Source of the DNA: Tricharina praecox
Lineage: Eukaryota
Direction of reading: 5' to 3'
DNA length: 64,000 nucleotides
Assembly (NCBI RefSeq): GCF_024521635.1
Contig: NW_026250414.1
Location: 744,001 to 808,000, forward strand
A program made the translations under genes and the position numbers. Below the pieces are notes generated by a model. That model searched no databases, was not told where the DNA came from, and saw only the letters and a list, made by a program, of their open reading frames with translations. Shown here piece by piece: positions 2,145-29,398 of the stretch; position 1 is the stretch's first letter; each line of letters starts with the position of its first letter.

Positions 2145-5100
2145 TGTTGTTTGCGTTGCGGTGGTGGTGGTGGCGATGGTGGTGGTGAACTACTGGGTAG
2201 TAGGTATGGTGTTGCGCGAAGCTCGGTGGGAGCTGCGATATGGCAGGCTGGGACGAGCTATGCTGGGAGACGTGACGCAGCTAGGTTCCGTACCTGGTCA
2301 TAACTACTGGTCACGGTGGTTAGACGCGCCAAGGCCGCCGGATCGTGGAACGGTGAACTGGAGAATCGAGATGGAGGAGGCGGACTATTAATAGTACCTA
2401 GCTGAGCAGCTGGGGCGGCAGTGGGGCCTGGGGATTCAGTGGGGAGTCAGGGATGGGAATTTGAAGGATGCTTCTCCGCACTTTCTCTTGGTGCCAGGTG
2501 GGAGACTGGGAGTCACTTTTTCGAAACCTGAGGAAGCACTCTATGACTCGTAGTTACAATAGGCACATACTTCCGTGCTATTGAGGTCGAATAGGTAACC
2601 ACAGGACCCATCCACAGTGTACACTCAATTCTTTCTTCAAAACATATTTTCTATGTAGATTGTCTACTTTGCGGATTCGGCTGCTCCAAGCCGGCGACTT
2701 TTTCCCAGCAATTCATACCTAATACTGGAGTGTTGACGCTCGAAGGACACCTTCCAAGGCTCCGACACGATCCTACCCTGATCATAATGCATCACTCTTC
2801 TTTCCTCCTTCCCTCTCCTGACTCCGATTCATCTTGGCAGTGCTTCCAAGTTTGAAGTTCCAAGTTCCAAGTTCCCAGGATGAGGGGCAGCACGTGAATG
2901 ACGAGGAACCATGTACCAAACAAGAACCGCCCTTTTTCTTCTTCTTCTTCTGCACGGCAGACAGGCAGTGCATCTCGCCAGAGTCAGGCATCAGGTAGGT
3001 ACTCTACCTACCGTACTCTACCCTGCTCTATTCCAGAGTACTCTAGGCTGTATGCGAGTTCACGAAGCAACAAAACCCCCCCAAAACCCCTTCTTCTGTG
3101 TAAAATCCAACTTCTACCGTCCCGCTTCAACGTCCCGTCAACGTTAACGTTGCAAGTGCACTTACTTCACTATGTAGAGTACTTACTTTCCGACACGCGC
3201 ACACCATACTCAAGGTACCTAACGTGAACTCTGGGGAAAGTGCGGTTTCCGGTATGGTCTAGTAACACTACTAATCTCGGATGCCGGGTACTGCCGACCT
3301 CCACCTCGACCGAGCCCCGGGATTCGGGATTCGGGCTGAGACGGAGGACGGGGGCGGGATGGGCTGATGATGGTTTGCGAAGTAGAGTACTGGTCTACTC
3401 TACATACCCCACTCTACATACTCTACTCTCTGTACATACCGTGCTCTGCATAGATACTGAAGATATCCGCTGGCATACGGTAGGTAGAGTAGAGAGCATC
3501 CGCATGCAGAGCTGGAGCTAGAGTAGAGGTCGCGCATCGCGTAGGTGGTGGTGGCAGTGGTGGTGGTGGTCCAGGTGGTGGCCCTGTGGGAAACGTCAAG
3601 TTGCAGGCTGCAGTGGCCTGCTTGAGTGGAAAGTGAGCAGTTGGATCGATGCTTGAGTAAGAAGGAACTGCAACCTCGAGAAAAACCTGCAAGTATCGGC
3701 CATTCCAAGTGCAAATTCTTTTCTGCTGTCGAAAAAAACTTTTCTTTCTGCTGCGGATCGTTTGTTTGCCCGCCTGCTTTCTCTACCTTTAGTATCTTAC
3801 CATCTCGGTCGCTCCGTGCATTTGTAGAGTACCCAGACTACCTACGCATGATGCAGCAGTAGCAGCAGCAGCAGCAGTACCACGCGTAGAGTGGTTTCCT
3901 CAGCATACATACCGCAGAGTACCGCAGAGCATGTACGTACCGCAGAGCATGTACGTACCGCAGAGTGGGTACATGCCATGCCATGCCGTTGCGAAGAAGA
4001 AGAGAAAGAGAGAGAGAAAAAAAAAGTCACCATTATAGTTACGCAGGCAGAGTATCTAACCTCATCCAACCGCCATTGGTCGAGGTCGGGTCGCATGTCT
4101 CCCTCCCTCCAACTCCTCCTGCCCCTCCCTCCATAGAGGGATGGATGGGCCGCATGTGTGGTTCGATAACTTTTTCTTTCTTGCGTGCGACGAGTGATGG
4201 AGAAAGAGGGGAAGAGAAGAGCCTGTCTTAGACTGCCTGTCTGCCTGCTTGTCTGTCTGGTTGTCTGGCTGGTTGTCTGGCTGTCAATTGAAAGGGGAAA
4301 AAATTTCTGCATTTCTTTGCATTTCTCTGCATTTTCGTTCGTCACCCTGCGTCTGTGTTGGAGTGTGTGTGCGTCTGTCGATCTGCCTGTGTGTGCGTCT
4401 GTCGGTCTGCCTGTGTGTGTGGTGGTGGATGTAGTAGTGGCTGTGGGTACATGAAGATTTAATTGCTTGTTTTTTTTGGGTGGAGGTGGTGGTGGTGCTG
4501 GTGGGTGTGGTGGTGGTGGGTGCTGACGGTTACAACTTGAAGGTGGATGGAGAACGAAGGCTGGAGGAGCTGGAGGAGGAGGAGGAAAGGAGGGTGAATA
4601 GCAAAGAAAAGAAGAGTGGGTGACGATGGTTATGGGACGAGGCGGGGATCGTGAACGGGTGGGTGAGCATAGGAGGAAAGGACGGTAGAGTAGATTCATA
4701 TTAGAAAGGACCAACAGAGGCAGTGGGAGAGGATGAGAATGAGAAGGAGGGCACAAGAAAGAGGAAGATGTCTCTTGACAAGGTGTGAGGCGCTGTTCGA
4801 GCACCGCCACACTCTTCCCCTCCAACTTCTCCAGGACCAACACCAGCCAGCCAGGCACAGGTCGGAGAGAGAAGAGACAGCAGGCTAGGCCTCCATAGAC
4901 GGCGGTAGGAGTGTGGTAGGTAGGAGTGTCTGTCTGTCTCTTCCACACGCTCCGTAGGTGGTGGTTGCCCACCTCCACCTCCACCACCCTACCACACACC
5001 CTAGAAGGTGATACCGCCAACTCCCCGGACACAACCCAGCGCCCACGCCCGCCCACCTCCCACCTCCACCCACCACACGCACACACATTCACATTCGCAT

Positions 5101-5653
5101 CCCCCATTCTCCTTCACCTGCACATTCCCCATTCACCACCCTCAGGAGCCGCCTACGAACAATACCTACCAGCTACCCCCCGTCTCCCGTCCATCGACCG
5201 CCGCACGACGAACGAACGACGAGCGCCACCCGATAGTTACCTCCATCCCCCATCCATCCATCCATCGCACTCTTTAGCCGTCGGCCGTCGACTTCACGCC
5301 CCGTCCGGCTTTTTGCGTTCGCGCTAAGACGCCCAACCCCCGGATCACGACCAACCCTACTCTGTTCCTCTGCTTCCCTTACATACCTAACCGACACATC
5401 ACTCACCACCACCACCGCACACCCTTCTTCCCCCCCGGAGAAAGCAGAGAGGAACACGGAGAGAAAGATCTAACGAGCTTCAACGACCACCGATCGCAAT
5501 ATCTATATATCTCCAACCACTACCACTGCTCGATTAGCGGCAATCTGGGAAAGTGGGAATAGGGACGGACATTGCCGCGCGCAGAACAAAAGTGGGGACG
5601 ATCGGTTCGGTCGGTCGGTCGGTCGCAAAAAGAGCCTCAACGAGCAAGGAGAA

Positions 5654-5685
<32 letters not shown>

Positions 5686-6747
5686 CGGTGATCGCCAGCA
5701 GAAACTACCCATCGCATCAGGTATCAACGACAGACGGGAGCAGGAAATAGAAGACTCTTTCGGCACGATACACTCCGTCGGTCGGCCGGTCAGGGTCGTC
5801 GGGTTGCGAGAGAGCTACATCGTAGTGTTTGATTCGATCGCGTAGCGACGAGGCGACACCGCGTTTTATTCCTTGGGTCGGAAAAGCCGCTTCATCTCCA
5901 GGTTTTCTCTTTGAAAGTCGGCGAGCGAGAAAGAGAGAAAGAATAGGGCGGGTGAGGTGTGTGAGTGAGTGTGAGTGTGAGTGTGAGTGTGAGTGTGAGA
6001 GCGTGAGTGTGTGTGCTGTGTTGTGTTGTGTGGTGTGTCGTGCGTCTGTCTCCGTGTCGTGCGTTCATCTTCATCATCATCATCGCCATCGGCATCACTT
6101 GGCCTTGCTTTGCTTCGCAGGAATCGCCTCGCTCGTTGACGACACTTTCTCCCTACACTCACTTAGACTTCTTCTTCTTCTACTACTTCTTCTTCTCCTG
6201 CACTCCGCCGCGCCGCTCCTCTGACGAACTGCATCAACAATAACAACGACAACATCATCAGCATCAGCATCATCATCATTGTCTGCAGCAGAAGCAGCAG
6301 CAGCAGCACCGACAAACGACAGCGGCTCAACGTTATAGTACATCCCAAACTCGGAATACCCACCCGCTACCTCCTCCACTTACCGCACACCCACGACTAC
6401 AACCCCCCAAGCCAACCAACCAACCAAGCCACTACTGCTTTCCCCGATATCCACCCCGGCTTGAGTTCCGTCCCCCGACCTCAACCTTACGTCCTCTTCA
6501 TCTTGACCTCCGACACACAACACACGAACTTCAACCCGATCCACCACCACTACCACCACCACCCCCGTAAGCGAACTCCTCCACCCCCGTCGGCTTTTAT
6601 CCTGCTTGCGGCTCGCCTTCCTCGCACCCCAACACACTCCGCAAGCTTGACGCTGGAAAGTCTCGCACTTTCCGCCGTCCCCGTACCGTCGCCAAAATCG
6701 GTCCTACATCCGCCTCCCAGACGCCTCCCCCGACTCCGTCGTCGCGT

Positions 6748-8405
6748 ATGACAACCTTCACTCCCTACTCGCAGAACAAAAACGCGATCCCCGCTCCTCC
6801 GGATCAACCCACGCCTCAATCCCCCCCGTCGTCCTTCATGTCCTCCGGCCATGCTCCGACAAACGCGATGACGACCGACAAGTTCAACAATAACAACAAC
6901 AGCAACAACAACCATTACCACACCAGCCAGTCGTTTTCGAACGTATCGACACCGCCATCCTCCATCGGCCGTCCTGTAATACAGACCACGTCCACTGCCA
7001 GCTCGCTCCTCACGCCGTCTAGTACCAGCGCGAACTCGACCCACGAGGACATGGAGATCGATTCTTTTATCGACGACGGTTTCGGGGATAGCAACCCCAA
7101 CAAGCGACGGAGAACATACGGCTCGTTCGAAGCCGAGCGACGATCGCCTCCCGCGAATCTTCGGCACGCTGGCAGTTCGACCGACGACATGATGGCCGCA
7201 TCGCCCTCGATGCAGCAGATCCAAGAGCTGATTACTAACCCTGATTGCTCCCCATATCATCTTGTCTGCCAGAAAAGTTTGTTCCCCCAACACCCTTCAC
7301 TTCACATGTCAATTCAAAGGTAAAGGGAAAAGGCAAAAAGAAAAGCGACGGTTAACATTCCCCCAGTGTATGAGAAATCGTATCCCGATCCGACCGAGAA
7401 TCTCATTCAACTGTATGGCCTCCAAACGATCGCGGACAAAGTGGCGCGCTTCGACGCCACGGGGAAGAAGAATAAGCTCCGGAAGAGTTACAAGGGGCAC
7501 ATCGCTACATTATCGGGCAAGAACGAGGTGGTCGCGAAGCCAACACAGTTGGGCCAATACTACGATCAATCTTCGCTCGATCCTGCGGAAAATAAGCTGC
7601 AGATGCTCGCGTTCTACCCCGATGAGGAATGGAGGCTGCAACACGTGATGGGCAAGGAGATGAGCCGCGGTTTCGACATGGCGAAAGTGAGGAGGGGATT
7701 GGCGAATATCACGAAAGGTGATATACCAAGGGTAAGCTTTGCTTCCCCTCATATATCTCCCGCTGTGACGCCGGAATGAAATACCCCCTCCCCCTGAGAA
7801 GAGAATGGATGGATTGCACCGGGTCGACCAACCAGTCATGTATGCTGACTGGTCGGCGTTGTTTCCACAGTTCGATGCCACAGTTCTTGGGCTCGACGAG
7901 GAGATGCCCCGCAAGCGGATTGAGAGCGCGCGCTCGCCACAAATGTCGGTTGGAACTCCACAACACAATGGCTCCACCACTCCCGGCAATGCCTCCACGG
8001 CTTCCGGAGGACCGGGCCCGAGTGAGCTCATTCGGCCCGAACGCAAGAACAAGAAACGGAGTTATCACGACGGATCCTACGAGGGATACGAAGAGGAAGA
8101 CGAATCCGGAGGTACCGCCGGCAATGGTCCGGGCGGTGGGAATGGTAGTGGTGCATCCGTCGGCGGTGGAAACTGGCCCGGCGACCCAAACAAACAGAAG
8201 AAGAAGAAGCGGAAGAAGGTATGAGCCTCCGGCTTTCCCGAGATCGAATCCTTCCCGGTTATTACACCCCATTCGGGATGCAATTGTTCTCATCGGCAAA
8301 TATATTTCTTAGGAGTAAAGTAATAACATACGGCAGAATCCTGATGTTGATTCCCCCGGCGGTATGGACCTCGGCCGACACAGTGTTCCGATATATGGAC
8401 GATGA
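6748..8405 (+). CDS. MED19: Mediator subunit Med19/Rox3; exons 6748-7276, 7367-7731, 7871-8218, 8337-8405
   Basis: Spliced product contains PDPTENLIQLYGLQTIADKVARFDATGKKNKLRKSYKGHIATLSGKNEV (Rox3/Med19 core) and a basic KQKKKKRKK tail; introns GTTTGT..TTAAC..CAG, GTAAGC..CTGAC..CAG, GTATGA..CAG. The last exon is less certain. Confidence 0.88.
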
Positions 8406-10620: not shown

Positions 10621-12420
10621 ATGACTCGGTCCAAGTCGCGAAAGGAGAAATTGGCCAAGATGGCGGAAGCGCAGGCGGAGCGGAGCGGCAGCGAGACTGC
10701 GGCGTCTGGGGCGGCGGCGGCGGGGGAAAAGAACACGCCCGCGGCGGCGGCAAAGGACGGCGGCGGCGGCAAAGAGAAAGAGAAAGAAGCGGTCAGCGCG
10801 CTTATCATATGCCGCAACAAGTAGCCTCCTCCTGTTGTTCCTGTTGTTGTTTCTCCAGCTCCGTCGGGACAATCTGTTCTTTGGGGGGAGGGGCTCGTAG
10901 ATACTGACGCGACGTGCGCGCGCAGGCATTGGCGGTACATCAGTTCGTTCCACGGGCCGTGGCTGCAGCTGCCGCCGGAAGTCCTCGAGTCGCTCGCGTA
11001 CAGCAACTTCGCCGCGCCGCGGCCGCGGCCCATCGATCCCGCCGTGTTCTTCGATCTCGTCAAGATCCGCCGCCACGTCGACGAGGCGACGACGCTGGCC
11101 GTGCGCGCCGCAAGCGGCGTCGCTAGCTCCCTATCCCCCAAGGATCATCATCTGCTACTGGGCATTGGCGGAGCCCCCGCACCAAGGCTGAGTAGGGAGC
11201 GGAAGTATCGCATGCGGGAGCTCGCCACGCAGAAACTCGCGAAGGCGTACAAGCTCGATGAGATTGCGGCGAGCGTGGCGACGATGCAGAGCGCGAGCTC
11301 GCTGGAGGACGTGGCGAGTCTGGTGCTGGCTAGGGAGCCGGGGAATGCTGATGCGAAGTATGTGCATTTCTTCCACGAGAAGATCCCGAGTCGCATGCTG
11401 GCCAAGTGCACGAGTCTGGCACCGCTGGACCATGTCATCTCCGAGCGGCCGGCGGAGGGCGCGCCCATGCGCACGCGCGCGGTGACGCGGGTCTTTAAGG
11501 ATGACTTTTTGGGCGCCGCGGCGGACCTGACGAAAGCGCTGGCGCTGGGGGAGCGGCGGCACGATGTCGTCCCCGTCGTCGAGCGCGGCGGGAGGATGGC
11601 TGATGAGGAAATGCCTAGTTCGCTCGAGGGCCAGCTACTGTTCCACCGCGCGGGGACATGGCTGAGCGTTGCGTGCCAGAGCGTGGAAACGGTGCTCGCC
11701 ACCACCACCGAGGCGGAGCCGCGGAAACTCGTGCGCACCTACGCAAAGCGCGCCTTACGCGACTACTCGCGCTTCCTCTCGGGCTTCGAGTACACCCCCG
11801 GGGCGCCGACGTCCACCGCACTGATCCCGATCTCGAACGCTTCCTCGTCGTCGATCTCGTCGTCGTCCTCCACCACCTCCTCCTCCTCCAAAGCCGGCAC
11901 CGACGTCCCCATCCACGCCATCGCGGCGCTCTTCCAGTCCCCGCCGTTCACGCTCCCCCCGCCCTCGGACGCCGAAGCACTAACGTACCACCCTTTGCTG
12001 ACCGACGCGCTCTACAGCACGCTGATCTGCCACCTGTTACTCGCCACGCCTCACAAGGAGCTGGGCCGCTACGTCGGCATGGTCACGCGGCTGACACGGA
12101 TCGCGGACGGATACCCGGTGTTCCTGGCTGCGCGCTCCCCCGCCCGCGCGGACTGGGGCGAGGTCGTGAAGCGCTGCACCCTTGAGTTCGAGGAGACCGC
12201 GGGGAATCCGCCGGAGTCGGGCGGTATGGGGCATGGCGAATATCCTGTCTCGACGGAGCGCGCGGGGTTGGTTACGAGGTGGGTTGCTGAGGGATTGGGG
12301 GGTGTTGTGCCTGGCGCAAATGGCAATGGCAGGAGGAGGAGGAAGCAGAAGGGGGAGGGGGAGAGTGAGATTGAGGCGGGGACGGGGGCAGGGTCGGGGG
12401 CGGGGGTAGTGGGGGAATAG
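10621..12420 (+). CDS. Conserved fungal protein of unknown function (helical/TPR-like middle; I recall homologs being labelled 'histidine kinase group protein'); exons 10621-10820, 10926-12420
   Basis: Intron 10821-10925 (GTAGCC..CTGAC..CAG) joins ALIICRNK to HWRYISSFHGPWLQLPPEVLESLAYSN..IDPAVFFDLVKIRR, running into the 458-aa ORF (LDEIAASVATMQSASSLE, YVHFFHEKIPSR, GYPVFLAARSPARADW); strong GC3 bias. Confidence 0.88.
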
Positions 12421-19900: not shown

Positions 19901-22900
19901 GTTGCGCAGAGCAATCTACAATTACATACCTAGCTAAACTTCTAGATCATAGTAGATTCACGTGTGCAGCCAGCAGGGTGGTTTCTTTTGGGTGGAAGGG
20001 TGCGTCCGATCCCTTACACCTGACGTCTCACAGCTTAGAGCTCACAGCTCGCACTCGCACCGGATTGCCACTTCCCCGGAGTATTTTTCTTTTATGTACT
20101 TTTTCGTTTTGCTGGTGGGCGGGGGATTGCACGGTGCGGCGTGGGAAAGGAAACAATGGGGCTACATGCTACCTAATTACATACGTCTGCTTCCTGTTTC
20201 TGCCTGATGCCGTTTGATGCCACCAGCACCCAGCACCAGCACCAGCACAACCGACGACGACGACGACCAATACCACCACCAATACCATCACCACCACGAC
20301 CACCACCAGCAGCACCGCCGCCGGCGCCACCATCAGGCAAGTCCTTACCCAGTCCGTCCCGTGGTGCGTCCGTACTGCTGCATACTATACTAATCTACCG
20401 ACAGGATGGCTGCTTTACCCCAGAATAGCGCATGTTGCCTTCCGATGATGCCTCCGCTCTACCATTCCACAGGGTGTGTGCTCGCCCGCCCGCCCGCTCG
20501 CTGCGGGAACGGAAACTCACAAGTAGGTAGTTTTCGGTTTTCATGTCCGACTAATTGTCGTTGTTGTGTATCGCTCGATACTCCGCCCGTGACATTCTGC
20601 CGTTGTTGGGGCCGGGACCACCACCGCGGGGCTCATGGCTGGTGCACTGGGCCGGCCGGCTGGCCTGCAATCTACCGCAAGCCGCTGTCTTTCGGCCCCA
20701 CGACAGCGGCGACAACGGAAGACGACGACGACGGTGGTTCGTTATCATTCGCTTATCCCTCCGTTCATCTTGATCGCCCATCCATCAATCCATCCATCTA
20801 TCCATCCATCCAGCTAATCGTCAATGCATGTCCCGTGACCACGCGTAACCGATGGTGACTGCGCGGGGATGGGAGACACCCGATGTGACATACAGACATC
20901 CGATGACGGTAGTTTTCCACTGGGGGGATCTTATCTGGTGCGATGGATGGATGTGCATGGCGAAAAGCTGTGGACCTGTGGTGGCCGGCGGCAGTGGCGC
21001 GTGGAGTAACGTTGTCCCGCGTACGCCGCAATCTTAGGGGCGGATGGGTGGTGGGTGGGCGGATGTGTGTGTGTATGTATGTATGTAGGTGAGAAGTAGG
21101 TATGTACGTACATAATGTATGCACCTACCGTACTCGACCAACGACTCGATGCACCACAAAGTCCGTACAAGTACCGTACTATGCATACGTTGCAAGCTTG
21201 ACTGCATATGTATCCGCCTAGCTACTTGGCCACTGTCCGTCCGTCGTCCCGAAGAGTGAGTGGTACGGTGGCGCGAATTGAAGGGAGTATCAATCGTATT
21301 CCGGCAGCGAAGACTCTGGCGAAAGCGGGATTGAAAGCGATTCGAAGAGAGCGGAAGCTGTGGAAGGCGAAAATGATTTTTGCCCCCACGTGGGCACTTC
21401 GGAAATTTGATCGGTAGCCAGGTATGGTTCGTGGAGGAGGGGGGAGGGGGCGGAAGTGTGACTGGGTGAGCGGGGTTTTGCTGCTGCAGTCGACTTGTTT
21501 GGTGGACCGGCGAGTGAATGTGGAGTGAGGTGGGATTAAAGCCCGGGAAAGTTGGAGGTTAGGGTAACTCCTATGGATGTGCACCGTAGCCTTGCGTTGG
21601 GCCGCAACGCAACAGATCCCAGCTCATTGGCGGGCTGGACATTCGCATTATCGTTCGTTTGTGGCGGGTAGTTCTCGGCCTGGATCATTCTCTTGTCGGT
21701 GGTGACGCTGAGCTCCCCGGGTGGCTCTGGAGTGCGACTGACTTTCTGGTATTGGCCAGGACGCGATTAGAGTCAGCTGGGCCATTCCATACCGAAATAA
21801 GCATACGCTAACATGGAGTCATGGCCGGCGGCATCGATCGTTCGTCCACGCTGCTGCGCGTTGGATCGCTGCGAGGGGAAAAGACCGGATTGACCGACCA
21901 GGTGCTCACACTTTTCTTTTCATCCCGTAAGCCAGTATATCGAATGTGAGATCATATGTTGGACTCACTCGTCTCGCCGTACGATGAGCCAAAGATATGG
22001 GAAACGGTACAGGTAAATACGTACAAGTGCCGTCACGTGTGGTGATATGTGCCATCCGGAGGAGGGAGAGGGCAGAGGATCTGAGCTGGTTGGTAGCCAC
22101 CGCCTACGTCTCCCTCCCGTCACGATCGACGGACGACTCTGTCTCGACATGGCTCCACTGGTAGCGAGAAGTCGAGCAAGACCCGGAGGCCACCTGCTTC
22201 AGCGAGCAAACTCTATCGTTCTGCCGGGGAGAAGCCGGTTCCGGCCAGTCAATCATGTGCGTATATCTGCATCTTCGTTTCCTCCCTTCTCCTTCTCATC
22301 TGTGATACATACAATACCTACATGTCCAGAACCTGGCGTATCCATTTACCGGATGAAACAGAAGAGAAAACAAAAGGCTTGTCGAAAGTCAAAAAGTGAG
22401 ATGTAGACGGGCAGCTGGCGAGCCCGCCCAGCCCTACCTACTCGTTCCGAAGGATACTAATCCTCTCAATAAACAGGTAATATAAAAAGGTTTGACGGCG
22501 ATTGGCATCCGGGGATGTTATCATCCGTCTGCCGCTCCCGCAAACCTCTCCCCCCAGGCTTTCACCGGACCATCGTGGCCGGTTCCACTGGAAGATGGGG
22601 GGCAGAGATGAGTTAGGCACGCTGCGCGCGCGGGTGCAAAAATCAGAGATTTGCAGGCGTGAGCGTGAGGATCGAACACAAAGAACCAACTTGACCTAGC
22701 ATCCAATGCTGCAGCCGCAGTCCCAAGAATAGCCGCCTCTGCAGGCGTCGTGATGTTTGTTCCGCCCCGCCTACTCCAGTAGTTAGCGGCGATCACTGGC
22801 TGCGTATATGCGTGAGCTCACGCTTGAAGCTTTTTCGTTTCGATGCAATTCTGGTGATATCCAGACCATGGATGTCTCCGGCCCCGGGTCTAGAGTATCC

Positions 22901-24075
22901 GAATGGTAGGTGTGTTGCGTAACCATTGTGTTTGACTCTCTCGTACGTGGTTTACACGCAATGTATCCTCCCTCCCTCCCTCCCATCCTTACTTCTGCAA
23001 CTGTCCTCTTGCTGTGTTGTGGTGGTGATGGTGGTGGTAGGTACCCGGTTCTTGTTCTATCCATGTGCCAGAGCAAGCAGTCAAACGTCTAACGGTTATT
23101 CCCAACGGTTGGACTGCGTGCGTACACGGCGGCACAATGATTGTCGACAGTGACGGGCTTATGGCCTCATACCTTTTGTTTCTCTCCGCCAAGGTACGAA
23201 GTTGCAAACATCACTTCCCCCCTCCCTCCTTCGTTCCCTCCCCCGTTCCCTCCTTCACATAAAAAACATCTCCGAAGCTGAAAACAGCCATTTGCAGAAA
23301 AGAGTATGAAAGACAGCAGCAACAGGGTGTGTATGTTTGCTCGCTCGCCCCCGGCCATGTGGTTCATCTTGAAGGTGCGGTCACCAGTGCGGATGGGACG
23401 TGTTGGGCGGCGGCGGCTGCCGGCAATCCGGCGATTCACACCGCACCGCACCACGTCTTCCGCTTGGACAAACTCCAACTTTGGGGTTCCGGCTCATCTG
23501 GTTGGGGATGAAATGTGACTGGATGCATCATGTTGGCTATCAGTGGGCCATGCAGACCGAAGGCCCAATTGCAAAGCCGAACGCCGCAGCGCCGCCCAGC
23601 GCCCTAGCTTTGACTCAGCCGACTGCAAGTGACTTGTTCCGGATCCAGCGCCAGTTTTCCCAAATTATCTGTCTTTTTTTCCTTTCCTTTCCTTTTCTTT
23701 TCTTTCCTTCTTAGTGTGGGGTGTGTTTGTGTGTCCCGCCGTGTCTCTGTGGCCTGTCATTGCACTGGGCTATCAGGTTAGGCGTGATGGGATTACGGGG
23801 CTTCATGCTCATGGACACAACAGTGCATATTCCCCCCGGCCACCACCAGCCTCCCTCCTCGTCTCTACGATGATGGGTGGGTGTGTATGGAGGGGGGATG
23901 GGGAGTAAAGGCGTCATGCAGTGCAGGTCTGTCCCAGAGATCAACTCTTATCGATCGTATTCCCTTCCCTCTGTCATTGTTGTTGTTCGCGCTCGGAAGT
24001 CTTTTTACGTCCAGAGACCACCGGTCAGTGGCCACCTCCATTCGTGCCCTATATCAAGCTCAGAACTGAACGGGG

Positions 24076-24083
24076 TATTTAAA
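24076..24083 (+). promoter_or_regulatory. TATA-like box of the microprotein gene
   Basis: TATTTAAA followed by a CT-rich initiation-like tract and an ATG-free leader up to 24744. Confidence 0.45.
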
Positions 24084-24743
24084 TCATCCAGTCCCCTCCT
24101 CTTCCTCCTCCTCCAGTCGGTCCGTTATATCGATCCCCCCTCAACCGTTGCAATCCTCAACATCTCCAGTCGATCTTCATCCACAGGATAATTAACGTTG
24201 TTGTTCTTCTCCCTTTCCCGGAAACAATCTCAGCGGTTTCTCTTTTCCACCGTCACCCTCTCCTCCTCCTCATTGTGGGCCCAATCTTCGAGACCCCCTC
24301 CTTCCTCCGGTTCAAGTTCGAGTTAGCTACCGTTGTCTGTTCAGGGGTTGCTTGAGCGTTAAACCCCAGAAACGGCATTTGATCTCGCCTCTCGCCTCTT
24401 TTTCTTCGGCCCGTTCCGTCGAGCCGTTTTTTCTTCCCGTCTCGCTGCACGTCTCACCACCCCAGCAAGAAAAAAAAACCTCCGAACCAACGGGCTTTCA
24501 CCAAAATCCGGGGGGTACATATCCAACACACCCAACGAAAAACACCTGGCGATCCCCTCTACACACACATAAAAAAAAGAGCGAAAAACATAGCTTGGAG
24601 AGCTCCTCCTTTCGGACGGACGAGAGAAGAAAAAAAGAAAAAAAAAACCTTGTTCGCTCCCATACGAACCGGACGAAAACCTCGGAATAAAAAGAAGAGG
24701 AGAGGAAACTAGCATACGCCGCCGCACGAGAAAAAAAACAGTA

Positions 24744-24917
24744 ATGTGCAACTTCGAAAAGATCACATACACCGCTTGTGGGCACGCAGTTCGCCGGTTG
24801 ATCGGTTACTGCCATTTCGCGAGAAATGACCCGTTTCACCAGTGCTTCGGCGTCCAGACCACCAAGCGCGAGCGGATCGTCCAAGGCCAGAAGTGCCCCC
24901 ACTGTGGCGATCTCTAG
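24744..24917 (+). CDS. 57-aa Cys/His-rich microprotein MCNFEKITYTACGHAVRRLIGYCHFARNDPFHQCFGVQTTKRERIVQGQKCPHCGDL
   Basis: Complete ATG..TAG ORF with coding-like codon use (C/G-ending), 6 Cys and 4 His in an MC-x9-CGH..CH..HQC..CPHC pattern; probable 5'UTR intron 24515-24741 (GTACAT..CAG) ends 2 nt before the ATG; T-rich 3' flank. Confidence 0.8.
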   Translation: MCNFEKITYTACGHAVRRLIGYCHFARNDPFHQCFGVQTTKRERIVQGQKCPHCGDL

Positions 24918-26549
24918 TATCTTCAAGTTCCCGCGGGGAGGGGGAGGGAGAGGAGGGGGTTGACGGGGTGAAATCATCTGCTGGGAGGTGTCGGTTGTTT
25001 TTTGATTCTCTTTCATCTTCTCTTCCTGCGGGGTCACTGCTAAAGGTGTTGACATCATGATCTTGGGTGTGGGGGGGGGGGCTTTTTGTCTGTATTTACC
25101 GGTAGCGTTTTCTGTCCGCGTATTTCATGTTCTTGAATCTTCTTTTCCTGTATTCAATTTTTTGATATCTTCTTTTCTCGTCTTTCACGTGTGAGGGGCA
25201 GGTCCGCCGCTTTCATTCCTGAAAGTTGGTCTGTCAGCCTACTACCATCCGCCGCTTATGCAGCCGGCCTTATCAGCCAGAGCCAGAAGTTTGAATACCC
25301 ATTCTTTCCCTTCCCCTCTCCCGCCCCTCCCCACCCTTGCCGACCGGAATCGAAACCGCATTTACTGTGCTTCCGTGCATGCTGCGTTCTGCCTATCTGT
25401 AGGCATCCCATCCTATCCTGGCATCCTTTTTTTCTGGGGTTGGTCGAAGGCTTTTGATTTCTGTCAGAGGGTTCTTGTTGTGTATGGTTGGTAATCTGTT
25501 GATGGCCTATGAAGGGGAGCACGAGGAGGGGGGGCAGGAGGAGGAAGAGGGGGAGGAGGAAGAGGGGGAGGAGGAGAAGGAGGAGGAATAGGCGTACCAG
25601 GTTGCTTAGTCTGCGATATTGCTTTAGGTTTTTTTGTTGTTATTGTTGTACGCTCATTTTTTTCCGCGTAATTTTTTCAGCGAATAACCAAGCACTTTGA
25701 TAACTATCATAGTCATAACATGTATTTACCGGTTAATGGGTCAGCACTTTCCTGCCACCAACAGTGTCCGCCACTTCGGCCCCCTTTGAAATTTCAAAAC
25801 TCATGGATTTTTCTGCCTCATCGGTCTCACTGCATACGTAGATACAGTACATCGCATCGCTCACCCATCGGAGTGCACGTGTCACAACATGCCCATGGCC
25901 ACTTGCACGTATGTATGGTATGTGATGTATGTACAAATGTATGTAATGTATGTACGAATGTATGTACGGTCCGCACTGCGCTGCCGTGACTCGTCCGCCG
26001 CGCGAATCGAATCGTCCTCGAGCTGGTGCCGGGAGAGGAGTGAAGGCGTAGAGGCACATGCATGGCTGCGGTGGGTGAGTATGTGTCGGGAGGAGGGGGG
26101 AGAGACAGGCGGCGCAGGACCGGTTCGGCTAGTTGCATGTATACCGAAAATCCAGACGGATCACGCCGTTGGCTAAATTTTTCCGTCGATGTTGCTGTTG
26201 ATGTTGCTGTTGATGTTGCTGTTGATGTTGCTGTTGATACTGTTATTGTGATGGGCTTCCATGATTCGCGGCTCATTGATGGGGAGGAGGGGGGAAGTGG
26301 CTTTGGTTAGATACCGGCGGCGGTGGTTTCGTAAATTGTTTTTTCCCTCTGGCGGGGAGACGAATAGCGCTGCAGGTGCGAACCCAGCCTGGCCGGCTGA
26401 CGACCGATGTGAGGTTGAATTAGGTTCTCGACGGGGCAGAATTCCGAAGACGTGGTTGCTTGCTTTTTCGATAGTGCTTTTGCTTTCGTCCCAGCTTAGA
26501 TACCGGCGACGACTCGACTTTTTGAGAATCCGTCAGATCAGCTGTGCGT

Positions 26550-26870
26550 ACCGTTTTTGCAGACGGCTCTTTTGCCAACACCTCTCCAGGCCGGAGGCGA
26601 ATCGAGAGGAGAGTACACAGAAGAAAGAGGAGATAGGGGTTGATCGTCTACAGTATAGAGGATTATCGAGAGAGAAGAAGAAGGAGAAGAAGAAGAAGAT
26701 CGGAAGACCAAGAAGAGGAAGAAACCCCCGCCATGGCCGCCAACGTTGGAGCCCACCAATGTGGATGCCCACTACTAACCACATTCGATTTCTCCCGCCG
26801 ACAGGAGTCTCCTTCACTCTCTCCTCTGGCCAACAACTTCTCCTCCACTTCCTCCTCTCGCCGACAGCTC
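26550..26870 (+). repeat. Dispersed repeat copy 1 (5' end of a multicopy gene: ATG micro-exon, intron, exon 2)
   Basis: Matches 48490-48760 in direct orientation (TTTTGCAGACGGCTCTTTTGCCAACAC..CCCGCCATG..CAACGTTG..CTACTAACCACATTCG..CCCGCCGACAG); partial third copy at ~14998-15050. Confidence 0.85.
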
Positions 26871-29398
26871 CCCCTCTTCCCAACAACTCTTCCATCGTTC
26901 CGCCACACCGTATTTTTGTTGGTTTAAAGATTATTGATTGCTCACTTACGACCGACCAATCTTGTTCGTGGCAATATATAGTACGCACTCCGTTTCCCAT
27001 CCACTGACTGTCCAACCCGACTCTCGTCCAGCGGCCCGACGTGCGCTTCCCCTGCCCTCTGGCCTCTGGCCTTTCCCTGAAGATGTGTGCAGAGCGCACT
27101 AAGGAAACAAAGCTACCTATGATAAAAGGAAAGTTCGCTCCGCTCCTCACTCCGCCCGTCTCTCACAGCTATTCCAGGATAGCCGACCACGGGTTACGAT
27201 CTCCTCGACCGCACCATTGTCTGTGAAGATTCGATATCACATATCCCCCATCGCCACCCGACCAAAAAGCGCATCATCTCGTCTCCAGATCTGTAGCTGA
27301 GTAGATAGTACTTGGCGCACAACTGGCAAGTACTCTACACTTCTCCAGCTTCGGAGAAGCACAGCGTACAGCGCACAGCTTACTCCGATTCCGGGTTATC
27401 ACCACCCCCCGCAACCAGTGTACTGCACAGTAAAAACGTTGAACCTAGCCATCGGGCCCCCCGCCCCAGAAATCTGCTGGATTCCGCACGTCCCCCTGCC
27501 ATCGGGCTACATAGTTAAGTCTCGAGATAACGACTCGTTCCTCGTTCCTTGCCGGCCCGGTTCGAAATTTCTCATGTGCGTCCCGCGCGTGGTCGTGGCC
27601 ATCCGAAGACGGAGGCGAAAGGCGTGTGGTAGCGCCGTGGAACGCCGGTCGACGTTTGAGTCGCCGGTAGGCGCGATTAGGCTGCCGGTGGAACCGGCGA
27701 GGGTGTGTGCTAGGGTAAGTGCTGGGGTGCGGGGGTGGGGTGGGTGCATGCATGTGTGTGTGTGTAATATTTGTGTATGTGTGTGCGAGGCGGACGACGG
27801 CAGATGACTGGATGGGGGTTTTCTCTCTCTGTTGAGTGGAGGCGGGCGCACGGGTGCGGTTGGTACGGAGTAGGTACTCTACTTGATTACCTACTACTGG
27901 CCGCTGGCGGCGACGAGCGGTGGATTGCAGATATATGGAGTCGAGTACTCCGGTGGACTACCAACTACGCACTACTTGGATACTTGGGTACATAAGGCGG
28001 GAATTGGATGGATGGTACATTGGTACATGCTCCGAGTCTCTGAGTGACGAATCTCTGACTGCAGCTCGCTCAGCCCTCAGTGTGTGAAGTATGAAGTTTC
28101 CGACCTGCAGTACGTAGCGGTAGCGGGTGGAGTACTCTACCAGGTCTATCTATATAGGCTACCTAACATTTCGGCCGTACCCCGATTCTGACCTGTGTAT
28201 ATGTGTGTGTATGTATTTGTGGGGAGCGGAGTTATTTGCCGTGTATGTAGTATTGAGAGGTACCGCAAGGCATCTGCGGCGTGCAGTGCGCTCTTCAGAT
28301 TTCTGCCTGATCGATACGCACATCTCTTGCCACGGGTACAACACGTACAACAACACGGAACTAACCAAATATCGCAACGCATCTCATCCGCAATCCACAT
28401 GGAGGCTGGAGCGCCAAGGTTGTTGCAATTTGTATTCCACCACCCAACGACCAGCTGTATAATTGTCTAAACGCCACATTGCATTGCAGATGGACGGTGG
28501 CGGCGGACTTTTGCTTCCGGAGGGGGAGTCACTGTCCGCCAATTACTTAGGTAATTCGGTAGGTACTGTCCAACGCAAATTTATGCCCGCGTGCGGGTGA
28601 TAATCGAGTATCCAGGTAAGTAGCTGTGCTGTCGGAACTGTGGCTGGTTGGATTCGTTCCTGGTGCAGTATGGGAACCCCATGGACCATCGAGTCTCGAC
28701 AAGTACCGGTAGTACCAGAGCATTCGCCTGGTGGAGAAAAGCTCTGAGTAGTACGGAGCCGAATGGCTGGATCCTGATCTACTAATAAGATCTCCCTCCC
28801 TCCCTCCCTTCCTTTCCGACTCGTGATACGGTATGCTCGAGAACGAATGGGGTTCTACCCGCATCGGGGATGGAACCAGTGTCGAGTGAGGGGAGCGGTT
28901 AGATATGTACATCATACGGGGTTGTGCAGATATGTACTTCTTACTTACTTATATGCAGTCTGCGCCCGCCTGCGCCCGCCTGTGCTGTATGTTGAATAAC
29001 CTGGGGATTCTGTGGTTTGTGGTTTGTACGAGCTCGGAGTACTACTACCTAGGAGACTACTATCTACCGTTTACCGTTTTGCTTTTGATGTTGTGGGTGG
29101 AGGTGGTGGTGGTGGTGGTGGTGGGCTGTAACACGCGCGTTCGCTGGAGGGGTCTCACGCAATATACATCAGACATGAGGATGAGGAGAGGGTTGAACAA
29201 AGGCATCGTGCTCGATCCGTGGCAGTCCAATCAAGCACCCAGGTGTGTAGGAAGGTATAGTTATTTCCATTCAAGTCTCTGTCCCGCGTCCCACTACTAC
29301 CTGGGCTACGACTAGATATCCTCATGACCCATCTCAGTGTTTGCGCCAGTGCAATCGCCACTCTCCGCTCGCTTTCTGTTCCGACCATCCACTACCGA

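Follow-up and report, generated by a model that had tools for sequence, protein, structure and literature searches.

The 64,000-nucleotide (nt) stretch of Tricharina praecox contig NW_026250414.1 that was analysed here (assembly GCF_024521635.1, positions 744,001 to 808,000 of the forward strand; hereafter the window, in whose own numbering all coordinates are given) contains a microprotein gene of 57 codons (P0001) which is genuine, transcribed, strongly conserved and under purifying selection. The encoded protein, rich in Cys and His, can be assigned to a family without a name that has a wide distribution in Pezizomycotina, the filamentous ascomycetes, and in most relatives its gene stands tail-to-tail with dapB, the gene for a small heme-binding protein. 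Taken jointly, these properties are best explained by a real small cytosolic protein with two metal sites, likely for zinc, that works in, or is co-regulated with, the heme/P450/sterol-iron circuit of DapB, a combination to which we give an even chance of being right.

The microprotein open reading frame is a conserved gene

By direct reading and translation, the open reading frame (ORF) of 57 codons begins with ATG at 24744 and ends with TAG at 24915-24917. Its second codon is TGC, that is, the product starts Met-Cys, and the translation is identical to the string given in the original prediction, a description made from the letters of the window. The view put forward there, that the gene is real and its product a microprotein which is rich in Cys and His, looks intracellular and has homologues in ascomycetes, is supported by the present analysis.

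When metagenome contigs were scanned, 118 of the 141 pattern matches could be confirmed as relatives; the best 80 are designated loci L001-L080. The ratio of nonsynonymous to synonymous substitution rates (dN/dS) of the ORF amounts to 0.059 between the window and L002, to 0.218 between the window and L003, to 0.119 between L002 and L003 and to 0.083-0.113 among L007, L008 and L011, and in distant pairs the synonymous sites are saturated, with dN still at 0.15-0.46. Measured at 0.06-0.22 rather than near 1, the ratio is that of a protein under purifying selection. When positions 22.0-29.2 kb of the window are compared with L004 and L008 by tblastx, no frame other than the microprotein ORF is both conserved and free of stops; as to the DNA itself, the similarity with L004 is restricted to the ORF, which stands alone in its part, and to the neighbouring gene at 29.4-29.8 kb. 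Outside the ORF, the flanks lose all similarity while the protein family spans several classes. No paralogue of the microprotein is present inside the 64-kb window.

An antisense ATG ORF of 186 codons (24498-25058, minus strand) lies across the microprotein ORF. It was rejected as a gene because its tblastx alignments to relatives hold stop codons, and it is regarded as a shadow of the real frame.

A widespread family without a name

The statement of the original prediction that this Cys/His pattern occurs in other ascomycete proteins was borne out by protein, HMMER and profile searches. Four close protein matches (65-79% identity, E 1e-19 to 1e-25), among them proteins of Wilcoxina mikolae and Sphaerosporella brunnea, are joined by 117 representative clusters at E<=1e-3, 15 of them at E<=1e-10, in an exhaustive HMMER search and by 241 matches in a family profile search, of which 120 were listed. 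Besides Pezizomycetes, the named members come from Orbilia (Orbiliomycetes), Geoglossum (Geoglossomycetes) and the lichen-forming Candelaria, Gallowayella and Caloplaca, from the Sordariomycetes Colletotrichum, Podospora, Fusarium oxysporum, Verticillium dahliae, Trichoderma, Xylaria, Diaporthe and Ophiocordyceps and from the Dothideomycetes Zymoseptoria, Aureobasidium, Hortaea, Macroventuria and Glonium, and thus from saprotrophs, lichens, mycorrhizal fungi and pathogens alike. Among the matches listed, every organism-specific name reads 'hypothetical' or 'uncharacterized', and no entry comes with a precomputed Pfam domain. The ESM Atlas, used as a lead only, returned as its top three clusters (scores 0.87-0.88) ascomycete proteins that are all unnamed and labelled 'hypothetical protein'.

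Residue conservation was counted in an alignment of 220 members, from which P0105, a repeat protein, and P0123-P0133, which are cluster members, were left out. Nine Cys/His columns stand out, all of them present in P0001, namely C2 (kept in 211 of 220), C12 (215/220), H14 (181/220, with Cys in 32 more), C23 (219/220), H24 (219/220), H32 (209/220), C34 (217/220), C51 (211/220) and C54 (211/220), to which M1 (212/220) and R27 (219/220) can be added. The dipeptide MC opens 151 members, and 56 more have an aligned MC behind an N-terminal extension that looks like a stop-to-stop ORF call through the leader, which argues that the domain always begins at the initiator Met. No fused form of the microprotein was seen among the members; P0105 (540 amino acids, 'six stretches'), considered as one, was rejected as a low-complexity repeat protein.

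Members such as K440DRAFT_625392 of Wilcoxina mikolae, FN846DRAFT_787803 of Sphaerosporella brunnea, GLRG_04280 of Colletotrichum graminicola and M1812_001805 of Candelaria pacifica share with the window gene the same nine columns, the Met-Cys start, the core Y-C-H-F-A-R-N-D-P-x-H-Q-C-F-G and the convergent dapB neighbour. The window gene is an ordinary family member, with a C-terminal tail among the shortest and the largest spacing to dapB (~4.5 kb) that was seen.

Two peculiarities of individual members were noted. In 21 of the 80 metagenome loci (L014, L030, L035-L039, L041, L042, L046, L049-L051, L053-L057, L059, L060 and L063), the tblastn match sets in at residue 2-6 and an in-frame ATG immediately ahead of it is missing, which may be due to an intron after the first codons, a different start or sequence differences; the annotated proteins of this subtype from Hortaea and Zymoseptoria read M-C-Q-[YF]-E. 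The Monosporascus member P0185 falls into a UniRef cluster labelled 'Cyanovirin-N domain-containing', a label that probably derives from another cluster member or a fused gene model.

Convergent pairing with dapB

The only functional lead is an arrangement that the original prediction had missed. In the window, the microprotein is encoded on the plus strand and a DapB-type protein on the minus strand downstream of it, so that the two genes converge, with their stop codons ~4.5 kb apart. In tblastn searches with the window DapB-type protein, the neighbour was found in 53 of the 80 metagenome loci, and in 51 of these 53 the match lies downstream on the opposite strand, 210-2512 nt past the end of the small ORF. 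Where at least 1.5 kb of downstream sequence is available, dapB is the neighbour in 35 of 42 loci, and, if sequences are clustered at 90% core identity, the pair occurs in 22 of 33 clusters, with 8 of the other 11 having less than 1.2 kb downstream; all of these are plain counts, uncorrected for the genome-wide retention of convergent pairs. The upstream neighbour, an RNA recognition motif (RRM) protein, recurs in only 15 loci as against 53 for dapB. Annotated genomes carry the pair under adjacent locus tags, as in Candelaria pacifica with M1812_001805 for the microprotein and M1812_001806 for the DapB-type protein (both contigs 552,167 bp) and in Hortaea werneckii with D0863_01836 and D0863_01835, respectively (both contigs 114,020 bp).

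Different family members are encoded at L015 and L021 on contigs that share a name prefix. L021 has a DapB-type neighbour 1.46 kb downstream. The 3 kb to each side of L015 contain none, and this member could represent a paralogue no longer part of the pair.

The window DapB-type protein has a hydrophilic N-terminus and no N-terminal hydrophobic segment, and its orthologues carry the cytochrome b5-like heme/steroid-binding domain PF00173 and are named 'putative progesterone binding protein' in Aspergillus. Exon 4 of the gene is 62% identical to the 127-residue protein P0364 of Aspergillus fumigatus Af293, with which the Morchella orthologue shares 66% identity over 120 residues. We take P0364 to be the DapB of the literature, an assumption that draws on matching length and species, the lack of a transmembrane segment and accession numbering. 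A. fumigatus DapB is described as a soluble protein of 127 residues with a heme-binding domain and no transmembrane domain, one of a family with the transmembrane protein DapA of 155 residues and DapC of 243 residues (PMC4791848). DapB and DapC oppose DapA and lower the activity of Erg5 and Erg11, which are P450 enzymes, 'through depletion of heme' (PMC4791848). The DapB proteins of A. fumigatus and of the window are alike in their ~120-130 amino acids and in being devoid of a transmembrane segment; a small Cys/His partner is not mentioned in the passages considered (PMC4791848).

Predicted fold and candidate metal sites

Structure prediction of the window protein by AlphaFold with the family alignment, at a predicted local distance difference test (pLDDT) score of 89.8 and a predicted template modelling (pTM) score of 0.63, places strands at residues 2-9 and 15-21, a helix at 24-28 and a further strand at 38-46 and thereby confidently predicts a beta-beta-alpha-beta fold. 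The model of the Candelaria member, which is 57% identical, has the same order of elements at a core pLDDT above 90 and, in addition, a short helix that begins just past the C-x-x-C.

The original prediction had suggested that two zinc ions could be bound, and two metal sites are plausible on the conserved Cys/His columns. We infer two structural metal sites, most simply for Zn(II), because nine Cys/His are conserved, the His of column 14 is exchanged for Cys in 32 members as expected of a metal ligand, a signal peptide is lacking and the alpha/beta core is predicted with confidence. Site one would be formed by the C12-x-H14 knuckle of the first hairpin together with the C-terminal C51-x-x-C54 knuckle, and site two by C2, C23 and the H32-x-C34 knuckle, with H24 as the ninth conserved candidate ligand or as a functional residue. 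Stabilized in this way, a rigid module would present the near-invariant loop F-A-R-N-D-P-x-H-Q-C-F-G as a binding surface, and the microprotein would act as a small adaptor or regulator and not as an enzyme.

Known classes of metal-binding proteins were compared with this picture. C-terminal zinc domains of Fur/PerR/Zur regulators recur among the weak structural matches, at noise level; in these regulators the C-terminal domain holds a structural Zn(Cys)4 site. Metallothioneins, which have a very high Cys content in C-x-C/C-x-x-C clusters, are poor in aromatic residues and need metal for a stable secondary structure, do not fit: Cys accounts for only 6 of the 57 residues (10.5%), Phe/Tyr for another 6, and a core of beta-sheet and helix is confidently predicted. 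The microprotein resembles the Haloferax C(P)XCG proteins HVO_2753 and HVO_0758, which have fewer than 70 amino acids, stand alone and carry cysteine knuckles; a metal-stabilised mini-fold presumably serves binding rather than catalysis in such archaeal and bacterial zinc micro-proteins, as would hold for the microprotein (PMC11241148, PMC10716476). There is, however, no sequence relationship, as HVO_2753_ZBP matches 1 of 53 family members at E=0.54, and the microprotein differs in its ligand pattern (C, CxH, CH, HxC, CxxC; nine candidate ligands, apparently for two sites), in its eukaryotic host and in the predicted topology.

Transcript, leader and conserved non-coding sequence

Two public assemblies, X1 and X2, had been labelled RNA by guess, no run being on record as such; both were accepted as RNA because their coverage is patchy and because the DapB-type gene is represented in them with four canonical splice joints of the minus strand. 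The joints, 29460/29534, 29650/29719, 29775/29846 and 29880/30039, have CT..AC ends, equivalent to GT..AG introns on the minus strand, and occur at depths of 1528 and 3051. Coverage falls to zero over 22208-23811 in both assemblies, and over 27822-29024 it is zero in X1 and about <=1 in X2. The soil metatranscriptomes X3 and X4 contributed nothing usable.

The absence of a transcript over 24744-24917 had been named in the original prediction as an argument against the gene; contigs from both runs cover these positions. Record 9 of X2 is a single contig of 896 nt (24043-24938) with 0 differences from the window, and record 3 of X1 a single contig of 1397 nt (24130-25504) with the substitutions 24665 C>T and 24857 G>A, the latter synonymous in Gln38, and a 1-nt deletion at 25071. 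The messenger RNA (mRNA) has at least ~1.4 kb, with an unspliced leader of ~600-700 nt that is free of ATG and at least 590 nt past the stop codon. An intron of the 5' untranslated region, proposed for 24515-24741, where GT..AG ends are indeed found, was not confirmed: the contigs of X1 and X2 run straight through without a joint, while the same runs hold the four spliced joints in the neighbouring gene. The proposed intron is thus not spliced in the assembled form; assembled contigs lose rare variants, and a minor spliced isoform may exist.

That the plus strand is devoid of ATG between ~23919 and the start codon was found to be correct, the previous ATG being located at 23916. The gap of 828 nt to 24744 is the second longest on the plus strand of the window, and none of 5000 shuffles of the 824-nt leader was free of ATG, with a mean of 9.6 ATGs per shuffle. 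The ATG-free upstream sequence extends over 812 nt in L002, at least 833 nt in L001, 492 nt in L003 and 364 nt in L004-6, and stretches of at least 200 nt are found in 15 of 30 non-redundant lineages, each of them in the top 5% of the ATG-to-ATG gaps of its locus.

Three non-coding blocks are conserved between the window and L001/L002, whose proteins are 89% identical to the window microprotein. The promoter-proximal block (23910-24133) shows 69% identity and contains GGGTATTTAA, the core of the TATA-like box GGTATTTAAAT that the original prediction had reported and that is present as described; this core is invariant in 3/3 sequences (window, L001 and L002). The core of the second block, situated in the leader (Table 1), surpasses in its identity to L002 the 85% of the ORF itself, and the alignment with L003 widens this element to ~24330-24470; the third block lies in the 3' part of the transcript. 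A consensus fold of the leader element, derived from only 3 sequences, shows hardly any covariation (term of -0.66 kcal/mol) and is weak evidence of a structure. A search of 23500-26000 against Rfam returned only mir-297, with 24 bits against a gathering score of 90 bits and regarded as chance, and a scan for bacterial promoters and terminators, whose model is irrelevant to a fungus, found nothing. The position of the tiny ORF behind an unspliced ATG-free leader of ~600-700 nt with a conserved element of ~130 nt suggests that the gene is controlled through its transcript or through translation.

On the plus strand of the window, no stretch without ATG is longer than that at 4768-6748, which has 1980 nt, is C-rich (696 C of 1981) and measures more than twice the length of the microprotein leader.

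Proposed role and alternative explanations

From the tail-to-tail arrangement with dapB in most relatives and the function of DapB in A. fumigatus, we infer a functional link between the two proteins, by which the translated, cytosolic microprotein with its Met-Cys start would act in the heme/P450/sterol-iron circuit of DapB or be co-regulated with it. A number of observations weigh against such a role or against parts of it. Among the 42 loci with sufficient downstream sequence, seven are without dapB within ~3 kb (L001, L002, L007, L008, L010, L011 and L015); six of these are the nearest relatives of the window, in which 3-kb flanks were examined and the spacing may be as large as the 4.5 kb of the window. 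L018 and L073 show other arrangements of the DapB match, and, in general, a conserved convergent pair may owe its persistence to effects in cis, with no interaction of the products. No member from Aspergillus or Penicillium is among the matches listed, and in the fungus in which DapB was studied the family may be missing or have escaped annotation. In the Pfam scan nothing reaches the cut-off, zinc-finger models included: for the window protein, DUF7575 scores 15.3 bits against 28.5 and Zn_ribbon_LapB 7.3 against 25.7, and the zinc-ribbon-type models (DUF7575, Zn_ribbon_LapB, Zn_ribbon_IS1595 and HVO_2753_ZBP) each match at most 2 of 53 members, weakly. Foldseek, with a best E of about 1, finds no solved structure convincingly like the models, and the best profile match among PDB sequences, MANF/ARMET at E=0.34, is taken as chance. 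Metal binding is deduced from the conservation pattern and the predicted fold, and the pairing of the candidate ligands from the order of the predicted secondary-structure elements. The RNA contigs reveal neither strand nor ends, expression level or translation, and the long leader is not family-wide, as the ATG-free stretch is 6-131 nt in the other 15 of 30 lineages (one cut by a contig end).

A complex prediction for the Candelaria pair of DapB-type protein P0235 and microprotein P0123 (residues 1-56) gave 0.01 and 0.02 against a mark of 0.34 and, carried out without alignments or controls, speaks neither for nor against binding.

It can be argued that the microprotein is real and its link to dapB positional only, the pair being held together by constraints in cis such as close or overlapping 3' ends, shared chromatin or a shared terminator region. 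The protein would then have its function in another context and could, for instance, be a small basic zinc module with nucleic acid or another protein as its binding partner. The distance between the ORF stop and the DapB match, mostly 210-1500 nt, offers a small target for breakpoints, and P0001 is basic, with 8 Lys/Arg against 4 Asp/Glu by direct count; yet the pair is still kept across a spacer of ~4.5 kb in the window lineage and of 2.5 kb in L004-6, and the upstream neighbour is far less retained than dapB. We hold a purely positional link to be less likely than the explanation favoured here.

The participation of the microprotein in the DapB circuit that we favour can also be phrased more narrowly. 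As a dedicated metal-dependent partner or switch of DapB, the microprotein would set the amount of heme that is withheld from Erg11/Cyp51 and Erg5, either through binding to DapB or as a sensor of zinc, iron or the redox state. Formulated as specifically as this, we judge the proposal improbable.

Binding of iron instead of zinc, in the form of an Fe-S cluster, a rubredoxin-like Fe or heme, would make the microprotein a redox or an iron/heme-sensing partner in the Dap heme economy. The C-x-H and C-x-x-C knuckles and the nine conserved Cys/His would be compatible with ligation of Fe or Fe-S, and the neighbour is a heme-binding protein, overexpression of which disturbs heme- and iron-dependent growth in A. 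fumigatus (PMC4791848). No Fe-S or rubredoxin model reaches its threshold, however, Zn_ribbon_LapB ('rubredoxin metal binding domain') being matched at E=5, and the Cys-Pro that the window protein has at residues 51-52 is not a conserved feature of the aligned members. A Rieske-type [2Fe-2S] site, for which the ligand pattern is C-x-H ... C-x-x-H, was considered and rejected, as C12-x-H14 is present but the second knuckle, C51-x-x-C54, reads C-x-x-C and not C-x-x-H. Iron as the bound metal is, in our estimation, decidedly improbable.

That the protein is instead a secreted or extracellular disulfide-rich peptide, be it an effector, a toxin or an antimicrobial, with its six Cys joined in three disulfides, is highly unlikely. 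Six conserved Cys in 57 amino acids would suit such a peptide, as would weak cathelin-like PF00666 matches in 13 of 53 members (best E=0.0021). Direct reading of the N-terminus MCNFEKITYTACGH, which is not hydrophobic, agrees with the statement of the original prediction that there is no signal peptide, and 211-212 of 220 members begin Met-Cys; the conserved His and the His-to-Cys exchange at position 14 speak for metal ligation rather than for disulfides, and the occurrence of the family irrespective of lifestyle does not fit an effector or toxin either. A Cathelicidin assignment (PF00666) was rejected on its 14.5 bits against a cut-off of 21 bits and on the lacking signal peptide.

Finally, a chance ORF in a non-coding transcript, with conservation reflecting an RNA element, could account for an ORF that takes up no more than 174 nt in a transcript at least 1.4 kb long and is surpassed at the DNA level by the conservation of a leader block, but this view is refuted for practical purposes by the dN/dS values, with synonymous sites saturated in distant pairs, by the stop-free frame in tblastx and by a protein family that reaches across several classes with flanks devoid of similarity.

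Novelty and implications

Keyword searches of the literature returned nothing on the microprotein family, and no literature was found on the motif CHFARNDP, on GLRG_04280 or on other locus tags, supplementary tables and ~1.7 million PMC articles lying outside that search. Members are already annotated as hypothetical proteins in many genomes; the novelty lies in defining the family, in its ligand pattern and predicted fold and in the pairing with dapB. Small ORFs of such size fall under the cut-offs of gene calling and of family databases, and the present family, widespread, under strong purifying selection and with a confidently predicted fold that has no convincing PDB match, is without a Pfam model.

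The dapB pairing provides a concrete and cheap hypothesis. If it is true, the microprotein would be an unrecognised component of the Dap heme/sterol P450 circuit, of interest for fungal physiology and antifungal responses, and, if the protein were a switch of DapB, a hidden part of the sterol, heme and azole-response circuit throughout Pezizomycotina would have been encoded beside dapB for several hundred million years. Were the pairing only positional, a clean conserved eukaryotic microprotein would still be at hand, whose long leader without upstream ATG suits studies of translation control.

Other features of the window

The coordinates of the microprotein locus and of the neighbouring DapB-type gene are compiled in Table 1.

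Table 1. Coordinates of the microprotein gene, its surroundings and the DapB-type gene in the window
Feature	Position	Strand	Basis or remark
Microprotein coding sequence (P0001), 57 amino acids, including stop, intronless	24744..24917	+	ORF, homologues, dN/dS, tblastx, RNA contigs
ATG-free upstream stretch, 828 nt	23916..24743	+	transcribed part is the 5' leader of ~600-700 nt
TATA-like box GGTATTTAAAT	~24075..24085	+	within block 23910-24133, conserved with L001 and L002
Conserved non-coding element in leader	24330..24470	+	core 24381-24469, 88.8% identity to L002
Conserved 3' block of transcript, no conserved ORF	25256..25411	+	~70% identity to L002
Minimum transcribed span, union of two contigs, genome-colinear	24043..25504	+ (strand inferred from ORF)	X1, X2
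DapB-type cytochrome b5-like heme/steroid-binding gene, 5 exons, 124 amino acids	29399..30142	-	four splice joints, translation
Approximate exons of the DapB-type gene	30142-30039, 29880-29846, 29776-29719, 29651-29534, 29461-29399	-	contig joints

The original prediction had considered the microprotein to be the only confident gene between 12.4 and 29.4 kb. With respect to long protein-coding frames this stands, as no stop-to-stop ORF of at least 120 amino acids in 12.4-30.5 kb is protein-like and the tblastx comparison agrees; with respect to transcription it has to be qualified, since RNA contigs also lie over 20075-21499 and 26477-27579 and the comparison with relatives covers 22.0-29.2 kb only.

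At 20075-21499, ~1.4 kb are covered by RNA contigs identical to the window (records 1-2 of X1 and 7-8 of X2). There is no convincing ORF in this region, the longest ATG ORF being a Cys-rich frame of 150 amino acids and low complexity, and the transcript could be a non-coding RNA or another small-ORF gene. Cover over 25817-27579 is patchy and partly of high depth and comes from numerous contigs with loose ends and a similarity of only 90-95%, which suggests a repeated or low-complexity element. A skip of 49 nt from 27126 to 27176, common to both runs, has the ends AG..CC, which are non-canonical on either strand. Just upstream of the 12.4-29.4 kb region, a frame of 531 codons is open at 10825-12420 on the plus strand, with a Gly/Ser/Ala-rich tail at its end; it is probably the gene that the original prediction had used as the boundary at 12.4 kb.

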